From the IMG/VR virus record IMGVR_UViG_2534681675_000018, positions 1 through 11,212 of that record: DNA of 11,212 bases; one strand, 5' to 3'. This DNA is from a virus. Lineage: Duplodnaviria; Heunggongvirae; Uroviricota; Caudoviricetes. The notes under the pieces are model-generated. The model saw only the letters and a program-made list of their open reading frames with translations, was not told the DNA's origin and did no database searches. Shown one piece after another: positions 1 to 11,212 of the stretch (position 1 is its first letter; each line of letters opens with the position of its first letter). The translations under genes were made by a program, and so were the position numbers.

Positions 1-435
1 GTGTTTTTTAGTCCATCTTTAAATATTTTTGTGAATCCTGCGCTTAAGGATGACTACATCAATGTAAATTCATGGCCAGATGATGCTGTTGAAGTTGATG
101 AGCAGGTGTATATTGAGTTTTCCGGATTACCGCCGAAAGGAAAAATCCGTATCGCTGGGGAAAATGGTTTTCCTGCATGGTCTGAAATTCCACCACCAAC
201 GCATGAGGAACAGATTGCCGCAGCCGAATTGAAAAAACAGCAATTGATTAATCAGTCCAACGAATATATGAATACCAAGCAATGGCCTGGTAAAGCGGCT
301 ATTGGTCGTCTGAAAGGTGAGGAACTGGCGCAATATAATTTGTGGCTGGATTATCTGGACGCACTGGAACTGGTTGATACCTCCAGTGCTCCAGATATTG
401 AATGGCCTACGCCTCCGGCAGTTCAGGCCAGATGA
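1..435 (+). CDS. tfa: Tail fibre assembly protein (Tfa, P2 gpG / Mu U-like chaperone); 5' end may lie upstream of the window
   Basis: C-terminus ...NLWLDYLDALELVDTSSAPDIEWPTPPA matches the conserved Tfa C-terminal motif and parallels the C-terminus of the convergent copy at 407..1000. ORF starts with GTG at base 1, so the N-terminus is uncertain. Stop TGA at 433..435. Confidence 0.78.
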   Translation: MFFSPSLNIFVNPALKDDYINVNSWPDDAVEVDEQVYIEFSGLPPKGKIRIAGENGFPAWSEIPPPTHEEQIAAAELKKQQLINQSNEYMNTKQWPGKAAIGRLKGEELAQYNLWLDYLDALELVDTSSAPDIEWPTPPAVQAR

Positions 436-1000
436 CATCCGGCGCGGTGCTCGTATCTGTTGCCGTCACCGCGTCAATGTAATCAAGCACGGCGTTAAGC
501 CGGGTGGTTTCTGCCTGCGTCAGCTTCCGCCCGGCCTGTAATTTCAGCTGAATCAGACTGATGGAAGCCATTGCAGCATCAATCAGTGACTGGCGCTGTG
601 CTTCTGCCGCTTCTACTGCGGCACCGTGTTGTGCCTCAGTATCTGTCACCCATTTCTCACCATCCCATTTATCGTATGGCGTTAACGGTGAAAGCGTGAC
701 ATAACCGTCTTTGATGGCACCGATATAATCCACTGTAACAGCAGCACCATTTTCGATTGAGTAAACAGTCTCATTGCGATGGTCTTCTTCATGGCTCCAT
801 CCCTTACCTGTAAATACTGCCACTCTTCCCGGAATGTTTTCGCCAGGGTCAATACCAGTTGAACAGGCGGGCATACTTACGCCAGTATTAATATATTCAT
901 CAGACCAGCCCGTATACTCAGATGTTTCAGCATCATAATAAAAACAACGCATATCACCCGGCACTGTAGCCAGCCCATTTTCATCAAAAACAGGTTTCAT
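407..1000 (-). CDS. tfa: Tail fibre assembly protein, alternate copy (Tfa') inside the invertible segment
   Basis: 197 aa ending ...LNAVLDYIDAVTATDTSTAPDVIWPELPEA (conserved Tfa C-terminus). Convergent with and overlapping the 3' end of the plus-strand tfa by 29 nt. Its ATG overlaps the TAA of the upstream fibre cassette by 1 nt (TAATG), implying translational coupling. Confidence 0.85.
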   Translation of the reverse strand: MKPVFDENGLATVPGDMRCFYYDAETSEYTGWSDEYINTGVSMPACSTGIDPGENIPGRVAVFTGKGWSHEEDHRNETVYSIENGAAVTVDYIGAIKDGYVTLSPLTPYDKWDGEKWVTDTEAQHGAAVEAAEAQRQSLIDAAMASISLIQLKLQAGRKLTQAETTRLNAVLDYIDAVTATDTSTAPDVIWPELPEA

Positions 1001-1506
1001 TATGCAGCCCTCACAATATAATTAAAGGCGATGTTACGTGGACGGTTTTCATTAGCTGTTGGCACGACACGAGAGGCGTCGAATCCAAGGTCATCGGTTT
1101 TGTCTATAGTAGTTGTGTTATTCGGCATTCTCGCTGATCGTGTTCCTGCATCGTAAAAAGCCCCTCTGATTGCATCAAAAGACATACCGATCCCGCCATC
1201 TGCGAATCCCTCAATATTTCTTATTGCATCCCCCTGTGAAGATAATAATTGTCGCCCGGCATCCACTCCACGTCCGTCATCCCAGCCACGAATAAATTCA
1301 CCGCGTAAATCAGGCAATTTATTTTTCGGATAAACCTTTGCCAGTTCCGGGTATTCTTCAGCAGAAAAAGCCGCACCGTTGCATTTCAGCCAGCCAGTAG
1401 GCGGTGTGGCTGAAGGCCACGGAACAGGCACACCAACGGGTAATGCTGAACCTTCTCCCAAACCAACGTTTAAGAAAATGCAGAGATTACGGCTAACTGG
1501 CATCAT
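1000..1506 (-). CDS. Alternate tail-fibre C-terminal (receptor-binding) cassette, promoterless in this orientation
   Basis: Gly-rich sequence with ...GVPVPWPSATPPTGW..., as I recall for variable C-terminal parts of Mu S/S', P1 S and e14/Rac Stf side fibres. No own promoter or RBS context; lies between tfa' and the invertase; contains a gix-like site near its 5' end. The first ATG reported by the ORF track is probably not a real start; the frame would be joined to a constant fibre N-terminus after inversion. Confidence 0.7.
   Translation of the reverse strand: MMPVSRNLCIFLNVGLGEGSALPVGVPVPWPSATPPTGWLKCNGAAFSAEEYPELAKVYPKNKLPDLRGEFIRGWDDGRGVDAGRQLLSSQGDAIRNIEGFADGGIGMSFDAIRGAFYDAGTRSARMPNNTTTIDKTDDLGFDASRVVPTANENRPRNIAFNYIVRAA
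1453..1478. other. Candidate Gin/Hin/Pin-type recombination (crossover) site
   Basis: TTCTCCCAAACC AA CGTTTAAGAAAA: two 12-bp imperfect inverted half-sites around a central AA. By eye about 19/26 identical to hixL (TTCTTGAAAACCAAGGTTTTTGATAA) and similar to gixL, both recalled from memory. Sits at the invertase-proximal edge of the alternate fibre cassette, where Mu gixR / e14 pix sites lie. Confidence 0.45.
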
Positions 1507-1533
1507 CCCCGGTTTTTATTCAGGGGATCCATC

Positions 1534-2133
1534 ATGCTTATTGGCTATGTCCGCGTATCAACAAATGACCAGAATACAGAATTGCAGCGTAACGCGCTGG
1601 AGTGCGCAGGATGTGAACTGATTTTTGAAGATAAAATCAGCGGAACGAAATCAGCCAGACCGGGATTGAAAAAACTGATCAGAACGCTATCAGAAGGAGA
1701 TACGCTGGTTGTCTGGAAGCTGGACAGACTGGGCAGAAGTATGAAACACCTGATCACGCTTATTGAGGAATTGCGGGAAAAAGGTGTTAATTTCCGTAGT
1801 CTGACGGACAGCATTGACACATCAACACCCATGGGGCGTTTCTTTTTTCACGTCATGGGGGCTTTAGCCGAAATGGAACGTGAATTAATTGTAGAGCGTA
1901 CACTGGCCGGGCTGGCGGCAGCGCGCGCACGGGGGCGCATTGGCGGACGTCGCCCGAAGTTGACAAAAGAACAACACGAGCAAATAGCGAGGCTGATTAA
2001 AAACGGTCATGACAGGAAACAACTGGCGATCATTTACGACATCGGCATATCGACGATTTATCGTTATCACCCTGTAGGCGATATACAGGCTGAAGAAACA
2101 ACCAGGCAGACTCAGGAAAATGAAAACCGCTAA
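1534..2133 (+). CDS. Serine DNA invertase (Gin/Hin/Pin/Cin family)
   Basis: 199 aa beginning MLIGYVRVSTNDQNTELQRNALECAGCE...VVWKLDRLGRSMKHLI...FRSLTDSIDTSTPMGRFFFHVMGALAEMERELI..., near-identical in motif content to Mu Gin as I recall it. Catalytic Ser in the RVS motif at residue 9; C-terminal HTH (GISTIYRY). SD AGGGGA 6 nt upstream of the ATG. Confidence 0.95.
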   Translation: MLIGYVRVSTNDQNTELQRNALECAGCELIFEDKISGTKSARPGLKKLIRTLSEGDTLVVWKLDRLGRSMKHLITLIEELREKGVNFRSLTDSIDTSTPMGRFFFHVMGALAEMERELIVERTLAGLAAARARGRIGGRRPKLTKEQHEQIARLIKNGHDRKQLAIIYDIGISTIYRYHPVGDIQAEETTRQTQENENR

Positions 2134-2152
2134 TCTGACCATTAGCGGTTTT
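2123..2152. terminator. Bidirectional hairpin between convergent invertase and gpU genes
   Basis: Perfect 12-bp inverted repeat AAAACCGCTAAT / ATTAGCGGTTTT separated by 6 bp (ctgacc), with A-run on one side and T-run on the other, so it can act as an intrinsic terminator in both directions. The invertase TAA stop (2131..2133) lies inside the left arm. Confidence 0.45.
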
Positions 2153-2159
2153 GCGTTAA

Positions 2160-2654
2160 TCAAAACAGCCCTTTAACGGAGCTGGCCGCGCTGTTAAGGG
2201 ATGATGTGACCTTATCTTTGAAGCCGGACAGCATATCGCTGAACGATGAGGATTGCAGGCGCTCCCGCAAATCCTCATCACAGCGTTCAAGGGTCAGTGA
2301 AAATTCTATCTTTTTCGCCTTACCGTAGCGATCAAACTCGGAGCGGGTCGTATTCGTTCCGGTCAGGACATACATGCCGTAAATCTGCCCGACACCATCA
2401 ATCAGAGGCCAGGGGCGTCCTGTATATGCCTGCGTGGTCAGCAACGAAAGCGATACTTCGCCACCTGTAATTTCAGGATAAAGCACACCAGAAAGAACGA
2501 TGCGATCATCGCCTGCCCCGATATACTGCCAGCTTGCTGAACGGTTAACGCGTTCATTTTTCACATGCCGCCAGCTTTTGTTTTGCTGTAACTGCTGATG
2601 CGGCAATGTGCGCAGCTCAAAAACAAACATGCCGTAGATCATCATCATGGCCAT
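2160..2654 (-). CDS. U: P2 gpU-like tail protein
   Basis: 164 aa, M(A)MMMIYGMFVFELRTLPHQQLQ... resembles the N-terminus of P2 gpU family tail proteins. Immediately downstream of the tape measure on the same strand (T stop 2661..2663, GAGGAG SD in between). True start may be the third ATG (2648). Confidence 0.75.
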   Translation of the reverse strand: MAMMMIYGMFVFELRTLPHQQLQQNKSWRHVKNERVNRSASWQYIGAGDDRIVLSGVLYPEITGGEVSLSLLTTQAYTGRPWPLIDGVGQIYGMYVLTGTNTTRSEFDRYGKAKKIEFSLTLERCDEDLRERLQSSSFSDMLSGFKDKVTSSLNSAASSVKGLF

Positions 2655-2660
2655 GACTCC

Positions 2661-5498
2661 TCAATCTTTATCGTAAAAACTGCCACGCCCGGCACGGGCG
2701 CGCCGTTCCATTTCTGCCCTGACCATTTCACCGACCAGTTTCGCCAGTTCGCGGGGATTCTGCGTAACAACGTTATGCAGATGAACATGAATTTCACCGC
2801 CAAATCCGGAGACAACAGGCTCCCGGTTACGGGAAGTTGCAGGAACTGATGCCACTGGCGATCGTATGGCCTCCGCCACCGGGCGGGAGCTGGCCGCAAC
2901 AACAGGGACCAGCGCCGGAGGCAGAGGAGTCGGGACCACGGGTGTGATGTTGATTGCGGAAGCTGGCTTACTGATCTGCGCAATCTTCCGCTCCTGCCAC
3001 TCCCCACGAACAGCAAGTGCGCGGGGCAGGTTCTTAAAGACAATATCGCCGGGGCCAATGCGTTTTTTCGTCTCATCAACCAGCTTACCTGTGTTATCAG
3101 CAATTTTGCTGAGTCTGCGTAGCGTACCGGTATTGCTGTCTGTGAGCGGTTTGTTGTCTTTGGGTTTATCACCTCCGGTGCCATTTTCCACAGGCTTCGG
3201 CGGATTGATTTTCGCCAGGTCCCCCTGAAGCAAGGCAACCTTGTCCTGAAGAATGGCCGCACGCTGTGCGTCTTCGATTTTCTTTCTCGCCCTTTCCGCT
3301 TCATCCGGAAGCACACCGAGTTTTTCAAGTATCCACGCCAGCGTATCCAGCAGCATTTTTGCAGGCGTCAGAACAAGCTGTAGCGCGCCACCAAGAACGT
3401 TACCGAATATCTCGCCAGCACTGGTACATTTATCCAGCGTTTCCTTGCTGGACTCCATCGGTGACAGCAGCGATTTAAACCAGTTAAAGAGCTGAATAAT
3501 CCCATCGCGCACGACATCAAAAACAGGACCAAACCGTTCAAAGGTTTCGCGCAACGGAGCCAGCCGTTCCATAATCCCACTGAACACCCCGGCATAAAAC
3601 GCCTTGATGGGTTCCCAGTATTTCCAGATGAGAACCGCCGCAGCCACAAACGCGGCAACAATCAATCCGACCGGACTGAACAGCGCCCCGATAGCGCCAC
3701 CCAGCAACGAGATGGAACCTGTTACCATTCCCCATAGTGCTGGCAGCACCCTGACGACATTCATTGATCCGGTCAGGAGAGAAAAACCAAGACGTAACGT
3801 GGCCAGTTTCCCGTGAAGCACGCCAATAACCAGCGACAACGAGCCAATCGTTGCAGTCATTGCCAGCAACGCACCGCCTGCTATCAGTAGCTGGCGCGTC
3901 AGTGCCGGATGGGCCTGCGCCAGCGCCGTCACCCTTGATACCACCCGCGTGAGCCACTGCGTGACAGAACGCAGCGGGCCGTCAATCAGATCTGCAATGC
4001 GGATGCGCAACCCTTCCCATGCACTGCCGAGTGATTTCAGATCGCCATCAAGGTTGTTGGCCATAACCTTTGCCGTGCGTTCAGCCTCACCGCGTGCGCC
4101 TTCAAGTTCTTTTCTCAGTTTGGGTAAGGAACCGTCACCTGCCGCATCAACGAGGGCCATAAACGATGTGAAAGCCTCTTCCCCGGCGATGTCCTTAAAG
4201 AAGGATACCCGGTCAACTTCCCCGTATTTGCGGGTGGCTTTATAAAGGTCGGCCAGCACATCCTCCATCGGGCGCATTTTGCCGTTCGCGTCAGAAACTG
4301 CCACACCAAGCTCTTTCAGCGCCTCTGCTGCTGCCTTTGGCGGTGATGCCAGACGAGCCAGGCTGGCACGCATTGCCGTCCCGGCATCACTCCCTCTGAT
4401 ACCCATATTCGCCAGCACGCCCGCCATCGCTGCGGCCTGCTCCAGCGATATTCCCAGCTTACCCGCCACCGGACCTGCATATTTCATGGTTTCGCCCAGT
4501 GCGCGAAGGTCAGTGTTGGTACGGGTAAACGCTGCGGTGAGTGTGTCACCAACCCGGTCCATCTGGTCAGCAGAAAGGCCGAACTGCGTCAGGATATTTG
4601 AGCCAATATCCGCCGTCTCGCCGAGATCCATGCCGCCAGCCGTTGCCATGCTCAGCACGCCCGGAAGCGCAGCCTGAATGGCCTGCGGTGTGAAGCCAGC
4701 CATTGCAAGAAATGCCTGTCCACTGGCGGCATCGCCTGCGGTGAACTGCGTTTCAGAGCCAAGTTTTAACGCCTGCTCACGCAGCGCCTTAAACTGTGGG
4801 CTGTTCTGGTCGATTCGCGTCAGTGCCTGAACGCGGGACATCTCTTTCCCGAACCCGATCGCAGGCTGCAAAAAACGCCCGGCAGCATAGCCGCCAGCCG
4901 CTGCCGCACCAATTGCCAGCGCACCACCTGTTTTCAGTTTTCCAGCAGTTTCCTGCGCGCGCGAATACCGCTCACGCGCCCGCGTTACACGCGCAAGCGT
5001 CTGCCGTTCGCGTTCAAGCTGGTTGTTGTACTGTTCGGTGCGTCTGATGGCCTGCTGGATGGTGTTATCGCTGCCTGTCAGGGAAATGCCGTGGCGTTTC
5101 AGCTCTCCGCCAAGCTCCCGCATTTTCTGAATTTCCCGTGTGCGCGATTCATTCAGGCGTTCAAGCCGGGTGCTTAACTGCTGCATCAGCTTTTGTTGTT
5201 TTTCGCTGAGCACTGTACCCGTGCGTTGTAACTGATTAAGGGCGTTAAGCTGGCGTCGTGCTTTCACGATGCTCGCATCCGCTTTACTGACAGCGTCACG
5301 GGCGCGCTCAAATGAACGCGCCTGACGCTCGAGATTTTTGATCGCCCCCTGCGTTCGCTGGATGGAGTCACCAAACTGCCCCATCAGGCGGCGGGCGTTT
5401 TCGGCAGGCCGGGTCAGCCTGTCAACGGCGCTGAAAGCGACCCGGATATCAAGAGTCTTCATTGTCTGCATTCCCGCTGCGAAGTGCCGCCCGCTCAC
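2661..5498 (-). CDS. T: Tail tape measure protein (P2 gpT-like)
   Basis: 945 aa with coiled-coil-rich N-terminal third (repeated Q/R/E/L heptad-like stretches), Gly/Ala-rich central region and hydrophobic segments, typical of tape measure proteins. Position after the E/E' chaperone pair and before gpU. GTG start at 5498 is the longest option; ATG at 5471 or 5462 are alternatives. Confidence 0.9.
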   Translation of the reverse strand: MSGRHFAAGMQTMKTLDIRVAFSAVDRLTRPAENARRLMGQFGDSIQRTQGAIKNLERQARSFERARDAVSKADASIVKARRQLNALNQLQRTGTVLSEKQQKLMQQLSTRLERLNESRTREIQKMRELGGELKRHGISLTGSDNTIQQAIRRTEQYNNQLERERQTLARVTRARERYSRAQETAGKLKTGGALAIGAAAAGGYAAGRFLQPAIGFGKEMSRVQALTRIDQNSPQFKALREQALKLGSETQFTAGDAASGQAFLAMAGFTPQAIQAALPGVLSMATAGGMDLGETADIGSNILTQFGLSADQMDRVGDTLTAAFTRTNTDLRALGETMKYAGPVAGKLGISLEQAAAMAGVLANMGIRGSDAGTAMRASLARLASPPKAAAEALKELGVAVSDANGKMRPMEDVLADLYKATRKYGEVDRVSFFKDIAGEEAFTSFMALVDAAGDGSLPKLRKELEGARGEAERTAKVMANNLDGDLKSLGSAWEGLRIRIADLIDGPLRSVTQWLTRVVSRVTALAQAHPALTRQLLIAGGALLAMTATIGSLSLVIGVLHGKLATLRLGFSLLTGSMNVVRVLPALWGMVTGSISLLGGAIGALFSPVGLIVAAFVAAAVLIWKYWEPIKAFYAGVFSGIMERLAPLRETFERFGPVFDVVRDGIIQLFNWFKSLLSPMESSKETLDKCTSAGEIFGNVLGGALQLVLTPAKMLLDTLAWILEKLGVLPDEAERARKKIEDAQRAAILQDKVALLQGDLAKINPPKPVENGTGGDKPKDNKPLTDSNTGTLRRLSKIADNTGKLVDETKKRIGPGDIVFKNLPRALAVRGEWQERKIAQISKPASAINITPVVPTPLPPALVPVVAASSRPVAEAIRSPVASVPATSRNREPVVSGFGGEIHVHLHNVVTQNPRELAKLVGEMVRAEMERRARAGRGSFYDKD

Positions 5499-5987
5499 GC
5501 CAGCTAACCACTTCGCCGGGCGTCATCATGAAGATTTCGGCGGGCGACCAGTTAAAAATGGCGGCGATATCTGCCACCAGATCTTCGATGTGCTCAAAGC
5601 ACACCAGGGTGATTACGCTGCCGTCTCCTGCACGCTCTTCGCGCCAGAGTCTGGCTCGCTCATAAAATTTACAGCCACAGCGCACAACTGAATAAAATCG
5701 CGTGACGACATTTTTTTAATCATCACTTCATCCAGTCGTGGCGAGGTCACGCGAGGCAACAGCGTGAACATGGTATCCGCTTTCAGATTCAGCACATCAG
5801 ACAGCGACAGACCACGCAGGGATCCAGCCTGTTCAATAGCCCCGGTGATCTCCACATACGTGATTTTTTCGCCACCACGCTCAATTGGTCGGGTCAGTTT
5901 TACGCCACGTTCGACAGCCATATCCTCACCTGCCGTCACATCATCCACCACGGTGTTATTCCGGGTTTCAGTATCGATGTCTTTCAT
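5449..5987 (-). CDS. Predicted E+E' fusion chaperone made by programmed -1 ribosomal frameshift (E codons 1-92 joined to the -1 frame ending at 5449)
   Basis: The -1 frame relative to E has no stop from the A7 run at 5711..5717 down to 5449 and overlaps the tape measure start. This matches the conserved tail-chaperone frameshift architecture (lambda G/GT, P2 E/E+E'). Confidence 0.55.
5613..5987 (-). CDS. E: Tail assembly chaperone (P2 gpE-like)
   Basis: 124 aa ORF directly between the tube gene and the tape measure, with AAGGAG SD 6-7 nt upstream of the ATG at 5987. An A7 run (5711..5717) lies in the coding sequence and a -1 frame is open from that point to 5449, the hallmark of the E/E+E' pair. 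Confidence 0.7.
   Translation of the reverse strand: MKDIDTETRNNTVVDDVTAGEDMAVERGVKLTRPIERGGEKITYVEITGAIEQAGSLRGLSLSDVLNLKADTMFTLLPRVTSPRLDEVMIKKMSSRDFIQLCAVAVNFMSEPDSGAKSVQETAA
5711..5717 (-). other. Putative -1 frameshift slippery site (A AAA AAA on the coding strand)
   Basis: T7 on the plus strand = A7 on the coding strand, read as AUU AAA AAA AUG in the E frame. Slipping back one base on the Lys codons reads AAU GUC GUC... in the open E' frame. Confidence 0.5.
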
Positions 5988-6042
5988 CAGTTTTCTCCTT
6001 TTCAGTCAGAGGCGACGCACTGCGCCGCCTGCATATTACTTA

Positions 6043-6555
6043 TCAGCCAAGCCCGAGCGCGGAACGGATACGGTCAGGCACAATGTCCTTGCCGTCCTTC
6101 CGGTAGATGTGGTTCAACAGGTCGATTTCCCACAGCGGGCGATCGTTAACGCTCAGCTTGTAGTAGGTGTTTTTGACAGCGTAAGTGTGTGATGTGGCTT
6201 CGCCCTGTTTGGCTTCCCCCATATCAATTTCCGTCACACGTCCGCGCATCTCGATTTCATACAGATCGCTTTCTGCATCGGTGTAGTATTCACCCGCAAA
6301 ACGCAGCAGCGTGCCGTCAATCGCGCCGCCATATTTAAGGAACAGCGCACGAACAGCTCCCCCCATGACAAAACTCGCATCAAGCGCGGAGTCGTCCAGA
6401 CCGAGATCAATACTTACCGCCCCCATCATGCCACCACCACGATAGCTGTCGGTTTTGCGCGTCAGTTTGGGCGGCGTGACGGATGTCACTTTACCCACTT
6501 CGTTTTCACCATCCACAAACAACGTAAAAAAGCGAAGATGTTTTGGTACAGCCAT
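6043..6555 (-). CDS. FII: Tail tube protein (P2 FII-like)
   Basis: 170 aa immediately downstream of the sheath gene. Sheath stop and tube start overlap (TGATG) at 6553..6557. Size and position match the contractile-tail tube protein. Confidence 0.88.
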   Translation of the reverse strand: MAVPKHLRFFTLFVDGENEVGKVTSVTPPKLTRKTDSYRGGGMMGAVSIDLGLDDSALDASFVMGGAVRALFLKYGGAIDGTLLRFAGEYYTDAESDLYEIEMRGRVTEIDMGEAKQGEATSHTYAVKNTYYKLSVNDRPLWEIDLLNHIYRKDGKDIVPDRIRSALGLG

Positions 6556-7739
6556 CAGGCACCTCCCAGCACCGCAAATGCGGGACCAAAGAATTCATCA
6601 GTAAACGTCTGGTAAAGCTCCATGTCTTCCAGCGGGGGAACAGGCGTATATTTGTAGCGAATACGCACACGTCCCTGACGTAAATTCGTGGTGCCGTTAT
6701 CCACCACGTCATACCAGCACTCCGCACCAATCAGTTTCCCGGCAGTAACCAGCGAATCCAGTTTTGCCCTGATGGCGCTGATAACATCCTTCACGTTCGC
6801 AGGTGTCAGTGGACTGTCGATGGTTTCAAACTGCGCTTCCGCAATTGAATCAGCCAGCACCTGTGCGGTTCGGGTATACACCTCAAAGATGTAGGCGTTC
6901 GTTTCCGGTGTGCGGTTGCCCCAGAAGCGGAACCCGTTGCGACGAATAATGGTCGTGATTTCTTTGTTGTTGAGGCTGTTGGCATCGCTGTCTTCGGCCT
7001 GCAACGACCAGAACACATGCCTGGACATCCCCAGCACATTTTTAACCGGAACGTTGGACAGCGATTTGTGCCAGCCCTGTTCATGGTCAATGTACGCACG
7101 AAGGCCGCACGCATAGGCAGGCGCGGGGAACGTTTCGTTTTCGCCACTTTTCGGGTTGTAGGCGATGAAGTCCGGCCATAAGAGCATCACTTCACGTTCG
7201 TTGAATTTCTGGCGGTAGGTAATCGCTTCAGCCATCGTGTTACAGCCGTGACATGAGGCATACACAAATGCGCGCAGTTTACCCGCAATCACGCACAGGG
7301 ATTTTGTCACCGCCTCCGTGTCCAGCTCCGGCGCGGCCAGAATACGCGGACGGTATCCGATGCTTTCATCCTGCTCTGCAACAAGCAGCGCATACATCCC
7401 CGTATAGCTGCCGTCATCCTCAGAACCACCGATAACCAGTTGATCCTGCGTCTTTTCGTCTTCTTCTTTGTGTTCAGCCACGCGAACGACGATCACCTTT
7501 GTGCTCACCTGGTCTGCGATGGCCTTAAGCGCACGATAAAGCGTCCCCGTTGTCCCGCATTTCCCCAGCACGTCATTGACGCGGGTCAGCAGTGTGGGCT
7601 TGTTCAGCGGGAACAGCTTCGCGTCCGCATCATCCGCCGTTGCCACGATACCGATAACGCTGGAATCAACATCGTTAATCGCTGTTACCAGGTCGGTATT
7701 TTCCGTAACACGGGCACCATGAAAACGAGTTTCACTCAT
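6555..7739 (-). CDS. FI: Contractile tail sheath protein (P2 FI-like)
   Basis: 394 aa, the size of P2 FI; first gene of the sheath-tube-chaperone-tape measure order; AAGGGG SD upstream of the ATG at 7739. Confidence 0.9.
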   Translation of the reverse strand: MSETRFHGARVTENTDLVTAINDVDSSVIGIVATADDADAKLFPLNKPTLLTRVNDVLGKCGTTGTLYRALKAIADQVSTKVIVVRVAEHKEEDEKTQDQLVIGGSEDDGSYTGMYALLVAEQDESIGYRPRILAAPELDTEAVTKSLCVIAGKLRAFVYASCHGCNTMAEAITYRQKFNEREVMLLWPDFIAYNPKSGENETFPAPAYACGLRAYIDHEQGWHKSLSNVPVKNVLGMSRHVFWSLQAEDSDANSLNNKEITTIIRRNGFRFWGNRTPETNAYIFEVYTRTAQVLADSIAEAQFETIDSPLTPANVKDVISAIRAKLDSLVTAGKLIGAECWYDVVDNGTTNLRQGRVRIRYKYTPVPPLEDMELYQTFTDEFFGPAFAVLGGA

Positions 7740-7896
7740 AGCTTCAGCCCCTTGTATCCGTTAAATGATTCAGCAACAATCATCACCCACCACGCGCGTA
7801 ATCTCACCCCTGCGCTATTCTCCCGTCACGGCGACAACAAAAAGCAGTAACCCACTCCGCACGCACATGCGACCATGCCGCACAGGGAGGGAACAG

Positions 7897-9006
7897 ATGA
7901 CCGACACCACCATGCAATTGCTCAGTCAGGGCACAGACCCCGTGAAAATGCCGGATTTTGATATTCTCGCGGAGGGTAAAACGTTGTCAGGCGTGGCAGA
8001 GCGCCTGATGAGCCTGTCACTGACCGACAACCGGGGATTTGAGGCGGACCAGCTCACCATCACGCTGGATGATGCGGATGGTCAGTTGCAGCTACCGCTA
8101 CGGGGCGCGCGCCTGACGGTTCTCATTGGCTGGAAGGGAGAACCGCTGACAGAAAAAGGCACTTACATTGTTGATGAAATCGCTCACGAAGGACCGCCGG
8201 ACAGGCTGACTGTTTCAGCCAGAAGCGCAGATTTTCGGGATGAATTTAACGTTAAACGTGAGGTGTCCTGGCATGATGTGACCATTGAGCGTGTGGTATC
8301 CGCCATCGCTCATCGGTATGGTCTGAAACCGCAAATCAGCGAAATGCTGATGGATATCGAAATCGACCACGCCGACCAGACCGAAGAAAGCGACATGTCC
8401 TTCCTTACGCGCATGGCGGAAATGCTGGGCGCAATCACCACGGTAAAAAGCGGCAATCTGTTATTCATCATGCCAGGTGGTGGCGTGAACGCACAGGGCC
8501 AGCCGTTGCCCTCGTTCGCCATTACACGCAGCAGCGGCGATCGCCATCAGTTCCGTATTGCTGACCGCGAGGCTTATACGGGGGTACGCGCCTACTGGCT
8601 TGATCTTAATTACGGGAAAAAGAAAAAAGTCAGCGTAAAACGCCGTAAACCGCCAAAACCCAAAAAGGAGAAAAGCAGCAGCCGTGAAGGTGATTATATG
8701 GAAGGCGCGGAAGGCAATGTGTTTGTGTTACGCAAGACTTATCAGAACGAGCAGGCAGCAAGACGCGCAGCGGCGGCAAAGTGGCAGCAACTACAACGCG
8801 GAGCCGCAGCGTTCTCCATCACGCTGGCGCGTGGACGTGCAGAACTCTACCCCGAAATGCATGGCACGGTAACAGGATTTAAAAGCGAGATTGATAATCA
8901 GGACTGGATCATTGCAAAAGCCGAGCACACCATTGATAACAGTGGCTTTACCACGCAGCTTGAGCTTGAAGCAAAAATCCCGGAATGGATAGCAGAAACA
9001 GAGTGA
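7897..9006 (+). CDS. D: P2 gpD-like tail protein (late control gene D family)
   Basis: Start chosen at ATG 7897 (MTDTTMQLLSQGTDPVKMPDFDILAEGKTL...) because it has a strong SD AGGGAGG 6 nt upstream. The upstream part of the track ORF (7765..7896) is low-complexity and not protein-like. About 369 aa, the size of gpD, and followed directly by ogr as in P2. Confidence 0.85.
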   Translation: MTDTTMQLLSQGTDPVKMPDFDILAEGKTLSGVAERLMSLSLTDNRGFEADQLTITLDDADGQLQLPLRGARLTVLIGWKGEPLTEKGTYIVDEIAHEGPPDRLTVSARSADFRDEFNVKREVSWHDVTIERVVSAIAHRYGLKPQISEMLMDIEIDHADQTEESDMSFLTRMAEMLGAITTVKSGNLLFIMPGGGVNAQGQPLPSFAITRSSGDRHQFRIADREAYTGVRAYWLDLNYGKKKKVSVKRRKPPKPKKEKSSSREGDYMEGAEGNVFVLRKTYQNEQAARRAAAAKWQQLQRGAAAFSITLARGRAELYPEMHGTVTGFKSEIDNQDWIIAKAEHTIDNSGFTTQLELEAKIPEWIAETE

Positions 9007-9048
9007 GCAACTTAGAATAGCGGCAGCACCACGTTAAGGGAGGTCGCT

Positions 9049-9309
9049 ATGTTCCGTTGTCCGCTTTGTGGCGCATCTGCCCGTATCCGCACCAGTCGTC
9101 CGGAAAATGATTCAAACACCGTGCGGCAAAAGTATTACCAGTGTAACAATCTGGAATGCGGCGTATGCTTCTCAACACTGGAAGCTTTCCATAAATTCAC
9201 ATCGAAACATGCCTCCGGCGTTCACTCTTCAGAAGGTATCCCGTGGCATGAGCTGCCAGCTTCACACAGGGGAAACAATCAGATGAGCTTGCCTTTATCT
9301 CAGAATTAA
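9049..9309 (+). CDS. ogr: Ogr/Delta-family zinc-finger late transcription activator
   Basis: MFRCPLCGASARIRTSR...YYQCNNLECGVCF... has the C-x2-C-x22-C-x4-C arrangement and the MFxCPLC N-terminus of P2 Ogr. SD AAGGGAGG 5 nt upstream. Confidence 0.85.
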   Translation: MFRCPLCGASARIRTSRPENDSNTVRQKYYQCNNLECGVCFSTLEAFHKFTSKHASGVHSSEGIPWHELPASHRGNNQMSLPLSQN

Positions 9310-9318
9310 CAGGCAGAA

Positions 9319-9347
9319 TTGCCGGAGTAACAAAAAAGCGATAGATT
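9319..9347 (+). promoter_or_regulatory. Candidate sigma70 promoter for the Hok-like toxin transcript
   Basis: TTGCCG - 17 bp - TAGATT immediately after the ogr stop. The predicted transcript 5' end (about 9352..9356, GCGCGGGUGCC) would give a roughly 400-nt RNA ending at the 9720..9744 hairpin, the size class of hok mRNAs. Confidence 0.3.
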
Positions 9348-9369
9348 ACGCGCGGGTGCCTTTCGGCTG

Positions 9370-9633
9370 ATGGTCGGAGGGAATACCCGAAGGCCGGATG
9401 TGGAAAGGCCCCGGAAAACATTTCTGTTTAACCGAGGCCCTAACCGCATTACCTTGACAAGTGAAAGGTTAGCGCCTCTCCGGAAAAGGAGCAAGTGCTA
9501 TGTCGCAAAAATCGCTTACGGCCATCACGTTCTGCGTGACGGCAATCCTCATCATCTGGATGCTGCATGGTTCGCTGTGCGAAATACGGATGAGCTTCTG
9601 GGGAGCGGAGTTTGCGGCGTTCTTACAGTGTAA
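9370..9633 (+). CDS. Possible mok-like overlapping reading frame (modulator of toxin translation)
   Basis: Open frame starting upstream of the toxin ORF, overlapping almost all of it and ending 7 nt before its stop, the same geometry as mok/hok. Protein is low-complexity, so it may only serve translational coupling. Real start uncertain (ATG 9370 or GTG 9400). Confidence 0.3.
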   Translation: MVGGNTRRPDVERPRKTFLFNRGPNRITLTSERLAPLRKRSKCYVAKIAYGHHVLRDGNPHHLDAAWFAVRNTDELLGSGVCGVLTV

Positions 9634-9640
9634 GCAGTAA
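9500..9640 (+). CDS. hok: Hok/Gef-family type I toxin (46 aa small membrane protein)
   Basis: Not in the ORF track (below 60 aa). ATG 9500 with SD AAGGAG 8 nt upstream; TAA at 9638..9640. Protein MSQKSLTAITFCVTAILIIWMLHGSLCEIRMSFWGAEFAAFLQCKQ has an N-terminal hydrophobic helix with C-V-T-A-I and C-terminal SLCEIR...E.AAF, matching Hok (...KSLCEIRYRDGHREVAAF...). Confidence 0.65.
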   Translation: MSQKSLTAITFCVTAILIIWMLHGSLCEIRMSFWGAEFAAFLQCKQ

Positions 9641-9719
9641 GGAAACCGCGACGGGGGAGCAATCCCCCGTCAATCGGTTGCCAGGGTATGGTCGAAGTGG
9701 CACCCAAATTTAAATTGAG

Positions 9720-9775: not shown

Positions 9776-10078
9776 ATGAGTGAAATGGTATTTTGTCGCG
9801 GATGCGGCAAGGAAATACATAAAGATGCCACATCCTGCCCCAATTGTGGAGCACCTCAAAGAACAGCAAGTTCAAAAAGCAGAATGACAGCCGCACTACT
9901 GGCTTTCTTTTTAGGTGGTCTTGGTGCACACAAATTTTATTTAGGTAAAGTGGGGCAAGGATTCCTTTACCTTATTTTTGCTGGACATTCATTCCGGCAA
10001 TCGTGGCATTTATTGAGTTTTTTATCTATCTATGCACCTCTGATGAAGACTTTGCCCGCAAATATGGCTAATGCCTAG
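9776..10078 (+). CDS. Zinc-ribbon / TM2-domain membrane protein, with apparently frameshifted C-terminus
   Basis: N-terminal CRGCG...CPNCG zinc ribbon, then LLAFFLGGLGAHKFYLGK (TM2-domain-like first helix and GAH+FY motif). After the T5 run at 9975..9979 the -1 frame encodes a clean second helix and acidic tail (CWTFIPAIVAFIEFFIYLCTSDEDFARKYG, stop 10069..10071), whereas the in-frame continuation (AGHSFRQSWHLLSFLSIYAPLMKTLPANMANA) is not helix-like. SD AAAGGA 7 nt upstream of the ATG. Confidence 0.7.
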   Translation: MSEMVFCRGCGKEIHKDATSCPNCGAPQRTASSKSRMTAALLAFFLGGLGAHKFYLGKVGQGFLYLIFAGHSFRQSWHLLSFLSIYAPLMKTLPANMANA

Positions 10079-10229: not shown

Positions 10230-10263
10230 ATCGGCAGCAGTAACCACACAAGAGGTGCCGCAA

Positions 10264-10461
10264 ATGACGCAAAATGTACGATGCAAAAATTGCAACAAAC
10301 TACTTGCCCGCGCCTCATTTCACTACATTGAAATAAAATGTCCGCGCTGCAAAACACTTAACCAGATAACGAGAGCCATCGAGCACCCCACACACATGAG
10401 GAGTTATGACCGTGGGGATCGCAATCCAGCACCAACCAGCACATACACCGGAACACACTAA
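10264..10461 (+). CDS. com: Com-like zinc-finger translational regulator
   Basis: MTQNVRCKNCNKLLARASFHYIEIKCPRCKTLNQITRAIEHPT... closely parallels Mu Com as I recall it (MKSIRCKNCNKLLF...HIEIRCPRCK...EHPT), including the four-Cys zinc finger. ATG 10264 preferred over the track's GTG 10255 (SD AGAGG 8 nt upstream). The 3' end overlaps the methyltransferase start by 56 nt, as com overlaps mom. Confidence 0.75.
   Translation: MTQNVRCKNCNKLLARASFHYIEIKCPRCKTLNQITRAIEHPTHMRSYDRGDRNPAPTSTYTGTH
10386..10417 (+). promoter_or_regulatory. Predicted RNA stem-loop sequestering the methyltransferase SD and start codon
   Basis: CCCCAC (10386..10391) pairs with GTGGGG (10412..10417). The 20-nt loop contains GAGGAG (10398..10403) and the ATG at 10406; a fourth GATC sits at 10417..10420. 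Analogous to the translation-inhibition stem of the Mu mom mRNA that Com relieves. Confidence 0.35.
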
Positions 10462-11212
10462 GGTTTATCAGACTGACAATGCCACGCTCTGTCGTGGGAA
10501 TGCGCTGGAAATATTGCCGCTGATTGAGCCAGAAAGCATTGATGCCTTAATCACTGACCCGCCTTACAGTTCGGGTGCGACACACAAGGCCGGACGCACC
10601 AACCAAGGCAGCCATGCAAAATATCTGAACGGCGAGAACCTTCACCGCTTTGATGGGTTCGCGGGTGAAAACATGGACGCCCGTTCGTGGGCTTACTGGA
10701 CACAATTATGGATGGCACAGGCACACCGCGCAGTCAGGCCGGGCGGTTATGCCCTGGTATTTACTGACTGGCGACAACTACCAGCTTTAACCGATGCGTT
10801 TCAGGCCAGCGGCTTTACATGGCGCGGCATCATTGCGTGGAACAAGGGGAGGGGGTCACGAACACCCCATACGGGGTATTTCAGGCATCAGTGCGAATAC
10901 ATCGTCTGGGGCAGCAAAGGCCATTTAGATAAATCGCCTTCGGGGCCGTTCGACGGCTGCATGACGTACCCGGTTATCCCGTCAAAGAAAATGCACCCGA
11001 CCGGAAAACCAGAAGAACTAATGGCGGAACTGGTCAGGACTGTGAATAGTGGCGGAACAGTCCTTGATCCTTTTATGGGGTCAGGGACAACGGGTGTGGC
11101 TGCACTGAAAGCAGGGCGAAAATTTATTGGTATAGAAACCAGTGATCATTATTTTGAGGTAGCAGCGCAGCGGCTTCGGGGGACTATTACCACAACCATT
11201 TCGGCTACATAA
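10406..11212 (+). CDS. DNA methyltransferase, beta-class amino-methyltransferase (N6-adenine or N4-cytosine; DPPY motif)
   Basis: 268 aa with catalytic motif IV LITDPPYSSG near the N-terminus and AdoMet-binding motif I (LDPFMGSGTTGVAALKAGRKFIGIE) near the C-terminus. This motif order defines the beta group. Start at ATG 10406 or GTG 10412; stop TAA is the last three bases of the window. No restriction endonuclease partner in the window. Confidence 0.9.
   Translation: MTVGIAIQHQPAHTPEHTKVYQTDNATLCRGNALEILPLIEPESIDALITDPPYSSGATHKAGRTNQGSHAKYLNGENLHRFDGFAGENMDARSWAYWTQLWMAQAHRAVRPGGYALVFTDWRQLPALTDAFQASGFTWRGIIAWNKGRGSRTPHTGYFRHQCEYIVWGSKGHLDKSPSGPFDGCMTYPVIPSKKMHPTGKPEELMAELVRTVNSGGTVLDPFMGSGTTGVAALKAGRKFIGIETSDHYFEVAAQRLRGTITTTISAT

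Follow-up and report, generated by a model that had tools for sequence, protein, structure and literature searches.

Gene content and prophage backbone

The window analysed here, an 11,212-nt stretch of viral DNA (IMG/VR record IMGVR_UViG_2534681675_000018), begins with the genes and elements of a tail-fibre module (Table 1): two tfa genes, a cassette for the C-terminal part of tail fibre H, a 26-bp crossover site and the gene of a serine DNA invertase. The two tfa genes are convergent and overlap by 29 nt; they had been recognized as tfa genes in a preliminary description of this DNA, which was made from the letters alone, and both products are indeed assigned to the Caudo_TAP family. The rest of the window encodes P2-type tail proteins on the minus strand (U, the tape measure, E/E′, the tube and the sheath), and beyond these the D and Ogr genes lie on the plus strand.

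Table 1. Genes and elements at the start of the window (positions are those of the window; a dot marks elements to which no strand is assigned)
Feature	Position	Strand	Properties
tfa gene	1..435	+	144 aa; Caudo_TAP, E = 2.8e-35; GTG start codon at base 1
Second tfa gene	407..1000	-	197 aa; Caudo_TAP, E = 3.7e-27
C-terminal cassette of fibre H, putatively stored	1000..1466	-	Phage Tail Collar domain, E = 1.5e-14
26-bp crossover site	1453..1478	.	Two AAACC-type half-sites around a central AA at 1465-1466
Constant spacer between the site and the invertase start codon	1479..1533	+	Conserved with L001, L014 and e14
Gin/Pin-type serine DNA invertase	1534..2133	+	199 aa; Resolvase, E = 9e-52, and HTH_7, E = 1.4e-12
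Candidate recombinational (Fis) enhancer	1552..1623	.	Position equivalent to that of the P1 cin enhancer; raised conservation
Hairpin with a 12-bp stem	2123..2152	.	Lies where the invertase gene and tail gene U converge

For comparison we fetched 23 related loci (referred to by L numbers), which were found by DNA similarity, as contigs encoding exactly the same 197-aa Tfa protein, or as contigs encoding exactly the same invertase. In L001 and L014 the equivalent of the first tfa gene directly follows the stop codon of gene H. This tfa gene lies inside the invertible segment and serves the fibre tip that is currently expressed, and the second tfa gene serves the stored cassette. The collection has 303 indexed blocks with the exact 197-aa Tfa protein, which, among the contigs that were read, is found in both orientations relative to an invertase. 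NCBIfam has no family for the two Tfa proteins or for the cassette product, and Rfam gave no match in the whole window.

The backbone is that of a P88-like (Xuanwuvirus) P2-type prophage of Escherichia coli, judging from sequence similarity. Positions 1535..9705 share 94-96% identity with phage P88, Xuanwuvirus P884B11 and Citrobacter phage phiSM, all three of which carry an annotated DNA invertase at the equivalent position; the minus-strand tail operon from FI to U is in the normal P88/Xuanwuvirus gene order. That this operon owes its orientation to the invertase was considered and rejected, as there is no second crossover site in the window at up to eight mismatches and the P88/Xuanwuvirus order explains the arrangement. 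The TTTTTTG slippery site for an E/E′ frameshift is absent at the E/E′ locus.

At least 80% of the window is covered in 128 complete E. coli genomes, and the genomes with any match have a median of two matching places each. The best backbone match among the retrieved loci is ∼97% identical, and the fibre module is 88-92% identical to the modules of pro483 and SKA5; among the 20 loci with a perfect copy of the 197-aa Tfa or of the invertase, there is none that matches the window perfectly from end to end.

The invertase and its candidate enhancer

The enzyme adjoining the cassette had been called Gin-like, and comparisons of structure and motifs bear this out. Its residues 1-185 match the Gin structures 4m6f and 3uj3 (E = 1.7e-91), its Ser9 lies within a MLIGYVRVSTNDQ motif, it has a C-terminal HTH, and it is the same as Gin over the stretches MLIGYVRVS(9)TNDQ and KLDRLGRS. 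NCBIfam gave only sub-threshold matches to distant serine recombinases. The exact protein is widespread, and in different isolates it is found beside segments of either orientation.

No consensus promoter for the invertase was found in the spacer (1479..1533) by a simple sigma-70 scan; the promoter and the ribosome-binding site of the gene presumably lie within this spacer. At its other end the gene runs into the hairpin, which gives a terminator-like match on the minus strand and has a T run after the palindrome on the plus strand. It is likely, from these sequence features, that the hairpin is a terminator shielding the stored cassette from transcription of the tail operon.

Near its start the invertase gene contains a stretch (the candidate enhancer of Table 1) that aligns with nt 19-90 of the cin gene of P1, where an enhancer is annotated. 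Its identity to gin, pinE and cin is 79-85%, compared with 68-72% for the next 300 nt, and third codon positions are also more conserved within it. Two G..C 15-mers, centred at 1562 and 1611, are candidate Fis cores; their spacing is 49 bp, and the corresponding spacing for Hin is 48 bp. We consider this stretch a candidate only, consistent with (but no proof of) a Fis-dependent enhancer like that of Hin. The Hin enhancer is bound by Fis and lies inside the invertase gene, ∼100 bp from the nearer site (PMC3798978).

The crossover site and its predicted partner

The crossover site, which reads TTCTCCCAAACC-AA-CGTTTAAGAAAA, ends 55 nt before the invertase ATG. It was already marked in the preliminary description, and comparison upholds it: there is one mismatch in 26 positions to the aligned site upstream of e14 pinE, the site is identical in eight related loci (L003, L014-L016, L018-L020 and L023), and in Mu its alignment falls on the annotated boundary of the G segment. 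Homology between the window and several genomes ends at 1450-1453.

No second site was found anywhere in the 11.2-kb window, even with up to eight mismatches allowed. The preliminary description placed both the second site and the fibre's constant N-terminus outside the window, and the related loci agree with this: in 22 of 23, an inverted partner with a central TT is found ∼1.8 kb away in the 3′ part of gene H (e.g. at 6102-6127 in L014 and at 5638-5663 in L001). The one exception, L022, has no partner within eight mismatches, which shows that some lineages do lose the partner. Since the relatives have their partner within H, and their tfa gene right after the H stop codon, the partner of the window's own site is predicted to lie ∼340-365 bp upstream of base 1; its predicted form is TTCTYGNNTACC-TT-GGTTTGGGRGAA.

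Two orientations of the segment

Both orientations of the segment occur in nature, across isolates rather than within one culture, and the breakpoints lie at the centres of the sites. The clearest example is the pair L014 and L017, which encode identical invertase proteins and carry their segments in opposite orientations. When L014 is inverted in silico at the central dinucleotides, it equals L017 at 2199 of 2200 nt, compared with 62% identity in its native orientation. The inner half-sites differ by a T/C substitution that changes sides between these two loci, as expected if strands are exchanged at the centre of the site. In another example, L023 inverted in silico matches L019 and L020 at 98.3-98.6%. 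The window's own sequence behaves in the same way: positions 1..1471 are found flipped relative to the invertase in L007 (100% identical) and in L005 and L008 (both 99.93% identical). In 5,426 complete E. coli genomes, the junction of cassette, site and invertase (the OFF arrangement) was found in 125 and the junction of H, site and cassette (ON) in 54, both counts being rough because phage families are not uniform in their constant parts. For segments of this kind in P2-like prophages, sequencing of E. coli cultures has given measurements of switching (PMC4272514).

We conclude, with a probability of about 0.9, that positions 1..2133 are the invertase-proximal part of a ∼1.8-kb, two-state invertible tail-fibre segment of the Gin/Pin type. 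The cassette in the window was described earlier as OFF in the captured orientation. Comparison with relatives, in which the upstream half (outside the window here) can be read, supports this state. All defining features of the Din family that we tested are present, save for the partner site, which lies outside the window, and the enhancer, which is a candidate.

The number of states depends on what lies upstream of base 1. If there were more than one partner site, together with tandem cassettes, the locus would be a shufflon with three or more fibre tips. Such loci exist: a locus with three repeats and four variants is known in a P2-like prophage of EPEC (PMC4272514), and L007, the very locus with a perfect copy of 1..1471, has three tandem collar cassettes, each after a crossover-like site, in addition to an invertase-proximal site. 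The extra sites of L007, however, are direct repeats of the H-side site and were seen in only one of the 23 loci, while the orientation seen in the window, with a collar cassette beside the invertase, comes with a single partner in L001, L003, L014 and L023. We regard a multi-state arrangement as quite unlikely for the window. A broader proposition is unlikely: that there are several upstream partners with tandem cassettes, making a multi-state shufflon, or else that the invertase works in trans, on fibre segments that belong to other prophages of the same genome. If true, either case would be an extension of a principle already known, not a new principle.

It could also be asked if the module still switches at all. 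A once-invertible module whose partner had been lost or mutated, for example, would leave the cassette as a permanent fossil. The partner is not visible in the window, L022 has no recognizable one, and in several relatives H is disrupted or the cassette is annotated as a pseudogene. But the invertase ORF of the window is intact and the exact protein is widespread, the site is identical to those of relatives found in both orientations, and the cassette and its tfa gene are intact ORFs that are 100% identical to their copies in L007. (In L007, too, the cassette is in store, as the third in the tandem array; versions that are expressed occur in L019 and L020.) A frozen relic is in our view very unlikely, and the two-state switch is the reading that we follow below.

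Reading frame of the stored cassette

The cassette had been placed at 1000..1506 (minus strand), which is the extent of a mechanically called ORF of 168 aa. The collar domain confirms that it encodes the C-terminal part of a fibre; its start needs to be revised. The true cassette begins at the crossover centre (1465/1466) and ends at 1000. The 13 codons in 1467..1506, the ATG included, lie outside the invertible DNA and are part of the constant spacer, and neither this ATG nor the codons that follow it belong to a real gene start. The cassette had also been called promoterless, and in agreement with this a simple sigma-70 scan found no promoter-like site before it on the minus strand.

The proper reading frame appears when the cassette is joined to a constant part of H. 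The constant H of L014 followed by the reverse complement of 1..1466 gives an in-frame ORF of 532 aa with its stop at base 1000, which reads ...DYLGLGE|GSALPVGVPVPW... over the site; the stop codon of this hybrid fibre and the ATG of the 197-aa tfa gene share bases. Near-identical fusion fibres are found naturally in L019 (532 aa) and L020 (488 aa). The converse holds for L014 itself: its native H has 493 aa, and in-silico inversion produces an ORF of 533 aa that agrees with the real H of L017 in its C-terminal part. The genes, the crossover site, the in-frame fusion and the natural occurrence of both orientations are established by these comparisons. The tip encoded upstream in close relatives has a Gp53-like C-terminal domain.

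Annotation of the cassette varies between loci: in RefSeq its homologue is a CDS in L001 and L002 ('phage tail protein') and a pseudogene in L003 ('missing N-terminus'). An independent small tail protein of 168 aa made from its own ATG, which the ATG-initiated ORF and the two RefSeq CDSs might suggest, is scarcely credible: its first 13 codons would come from the spacer ahead of the invertase gene, it is not preceded by any promoter-like site, it would have no N-terminal fibre part for attachment to the baseplate, the L003 copy is marked as lacking its N-terminus, and the same sequence forms the C-terminus of the 488-532-aa fibres of L019 and L020.

Comparison with known systems

The preliminary description likened the layout to those of the Mu G segment, the P1 C segment and e14. 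The likeness in architecture stands for all three, and homology of the cargo was found for e14 only.

The closest known system is the P segment of e14, with its invertase Pin, in E. coli K-12. Gene order and orientation are identical (stfP/ycfK-tfaP-tfaE-stfE′-pinE). The cassette product shares 59% identity with e14 StfE (E = 2.5e-66), the 197-aa Tfa shares 64% with TfaE (E = 8e-86) and the 144-aa Tfa shares 58% with TfaP (E = 1e-40); PinE is a close homologue of the invertase, with 184 aa compared with 199 aa in the window. The central part of the cassette differs between the two systems, and so does the host element: e14 is a lambdoid remnant, whereas the segment in the window belongs to a P2-type (P88-like) prophage that is complete and has a contractile tail. 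The e14 segment is documented to switch in cultures (PMC4272514).

The invertible fibre segments of P2-type phages and prophages (P88, phiSM, pro483, SKA5 and the P2-like prophages of EPEC E2348/69) are of the same kind, and differ from that of the window only in the pairing of cassettes and in a few percent of sequence divergence.

The G segment of Mu (with Gin) and the C segment of P1 (with Cin) share the architecture: a constant N-terminal part of the fibre, two alternative C-termini and an adjacent invertase. Each alternative C-terminus has its own chaperone gene, in inverted order, as in the window. Similarity of the cassette product to Mu S′ and P1 S was among the earlier expectations, and it was not borne out: no BLASTP match at E ≤ 1e-3 to the three window proteins was found for Mu S, the S′ C-terminus, U and U′, or for P1 S, Sv′, U and U′. 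As neither the fibres nor the chaperones of Mu and P1 show detectable similarity, the relationship to these two systems lies in the invertase alone, and their cargo is an analogue in function. The segments also differ in length (∼1.8 kb for the system in the window, ∼3.1 kb for Mu and ∼4.3 kb for P1), and, seen from gene S, the cin gene of P1 flanks the opposite side of the segment.

A more distant comparison is with Hin/hix, the flagellar phase switch of Salmonella, whose invertase is of the same family as the enzyme of the window. Its mechanism, which uses two 26-bp sites and a Fis-bound enhancer in the invertase gene, is the one proposed here, with the enhancer of the window as a candidate. 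But Hin flips a promoter, not coding cassettes, and its cargo is unrelated.

Proposed switch and its significance

From the arrangement in the window and in its relatives we propose the following two-state switch. As captured, H would consist of its constant N-terminal part and a variable tip whose coding sequence lies upstream of base 1; the late operon of the phage would express both parts together with the first tfa gene. The collar-domain tip in the window would lack a gene start and, like its chaperone gene (the second tfa gene), be oriented against the direction of expression. The invertase would pair the crossover site with the inverted partner in the 3′ part of H, both sites would be cut at the central AA/TT dinucleotide, and the intervening DNA would be flipped. 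Inversion would then make the stored tip the in-frame continuation of the constant H part, with its chaperone gene directly downstream, and the exchange of tips would change the receptor specificity of the phage particles produced. We infer that the segment switches in the source strain itself, that switching depends on Fis and the enhancer, and that it changes the host range.

Invertible tail-fibre segments of the Gin/Pin type have been textbook material since the 1980s. The system described here is already known and ordinary: several annotated phages and many of the sequenced genomes contain near-identical copies, and as a discovery a module that recurs in so many sequenced E. coli genomes carries little weight. 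Its meaning is more practical. For annotation, a 168-aa 'phage tail protein' CDS beside an invertase gene is to be read as a gene fragment kept in store and not as a gene in its own right. For the biology of the host strains, isolates may differ in the orientation of the 1.8-kb segment, or be mixed for it, which affects both the assemblies of their genomes and the host range of the phage that they release upon induction.

Gene content outside the fibre module

The tail operon and the invertase gene point towards each other, whereas the operon and gene D point apart. In P2-type relatives, such as the related locus L001, this operon lies on the plus strand, whereas in the window it lies on the minus strand; P88-like phages normally show the latter arrangement, and no crossover-like site flanks the tail-operon block. 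The overlap between gene E and the ORF with a GpE domain is the arrangement expected for the programmed E/E' frameshift of P2; the slippery motif TTTTTTG is, however, absent from this E/GpE locus (5449-5987). The gpD-like product is annotated as 369 aa in relatives, compared with the longer mechanical ORF in the window, and therefore the first ~44 codons of this ORF are probably not translated.

Selected features of the window
Feature	Position	Strand	Remarks
Tail operon (sheath, tube, E/E', tape measure, U)	2160-7739	-	
ORF with GpE domain	5449-5685	-	different frame from E, overlaps E
Tail chaperone gene E	5613-5987	-	
gpD-like protein gene (D)	7765-9006	+	mechanical ORF, 413 aa
Hok/Gef-family toxin	9500-9640	+	46 aa; Pfam E 4e-7
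Small protein, N-terminal zinc ribbon and TM2 membrane domain	9776-10078	+	
Mu Com-like zinc-ribbon gene	10255-10461	+	
N6/N4 DNA methyltransferase gene	10406-11212	+	incomplete, continues past window end

The gene for the zinc ribbon/TM2 protein is one of the accessory genes located at the prophage end. The Hok/Gef-family toxin gene is found downstream of ogr, and a search of the window against Rfam returned neither a Sok-type RNA nor any other RNA family at threshold. The 3' part of the Com-like gene overlaps the start of the methyltransferase gene, and the two are reminiscent of phage Mu, in which a com-mom pair comes after gin. In one related locus (L012), the prophage ends shortly past the methyltransferase gene, beside raiA.

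Variation and exchange of the fibre module

The related locus L007 carries window positions 1-1471 at 100% identity. Its 6531-9363 region holds three collar-domain cassettes in tandem, all with the C-terminal sequence NYIVRAA followed by a stop. Crossover-like sites at 6531, 7009 and 7523, one ahead of each cassette, share the same orientation, and a fourth (at 9338) is inverted and adjoins the invertase. Only the first of these cassettes is fused to the fibre gene H, and only the last is followed by a tfa gene. The locus looks like a multi-state, shufflon-like form of the fibre switch.

Three other related loci (L014, L015 and L018) share the identical invertase of the window and have nearly identical tfa genes; in these loci the body of the stored cassette (window 1048-1450) is replaced by unrelated sequence, while its site-proximal start and C-terminal end are retained. 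Fibre tips are thus mosaic at a sub-gene scale. The exact 197-aa Tfa of the window (the chaperone of the stored cassette), its cassette and an invertase are found in two Mu-type prophages with baseplate genes Gp45/46/47/48 (L008 and L011), and therefore P2-type and Mu-type phages swap the whole invertible module.
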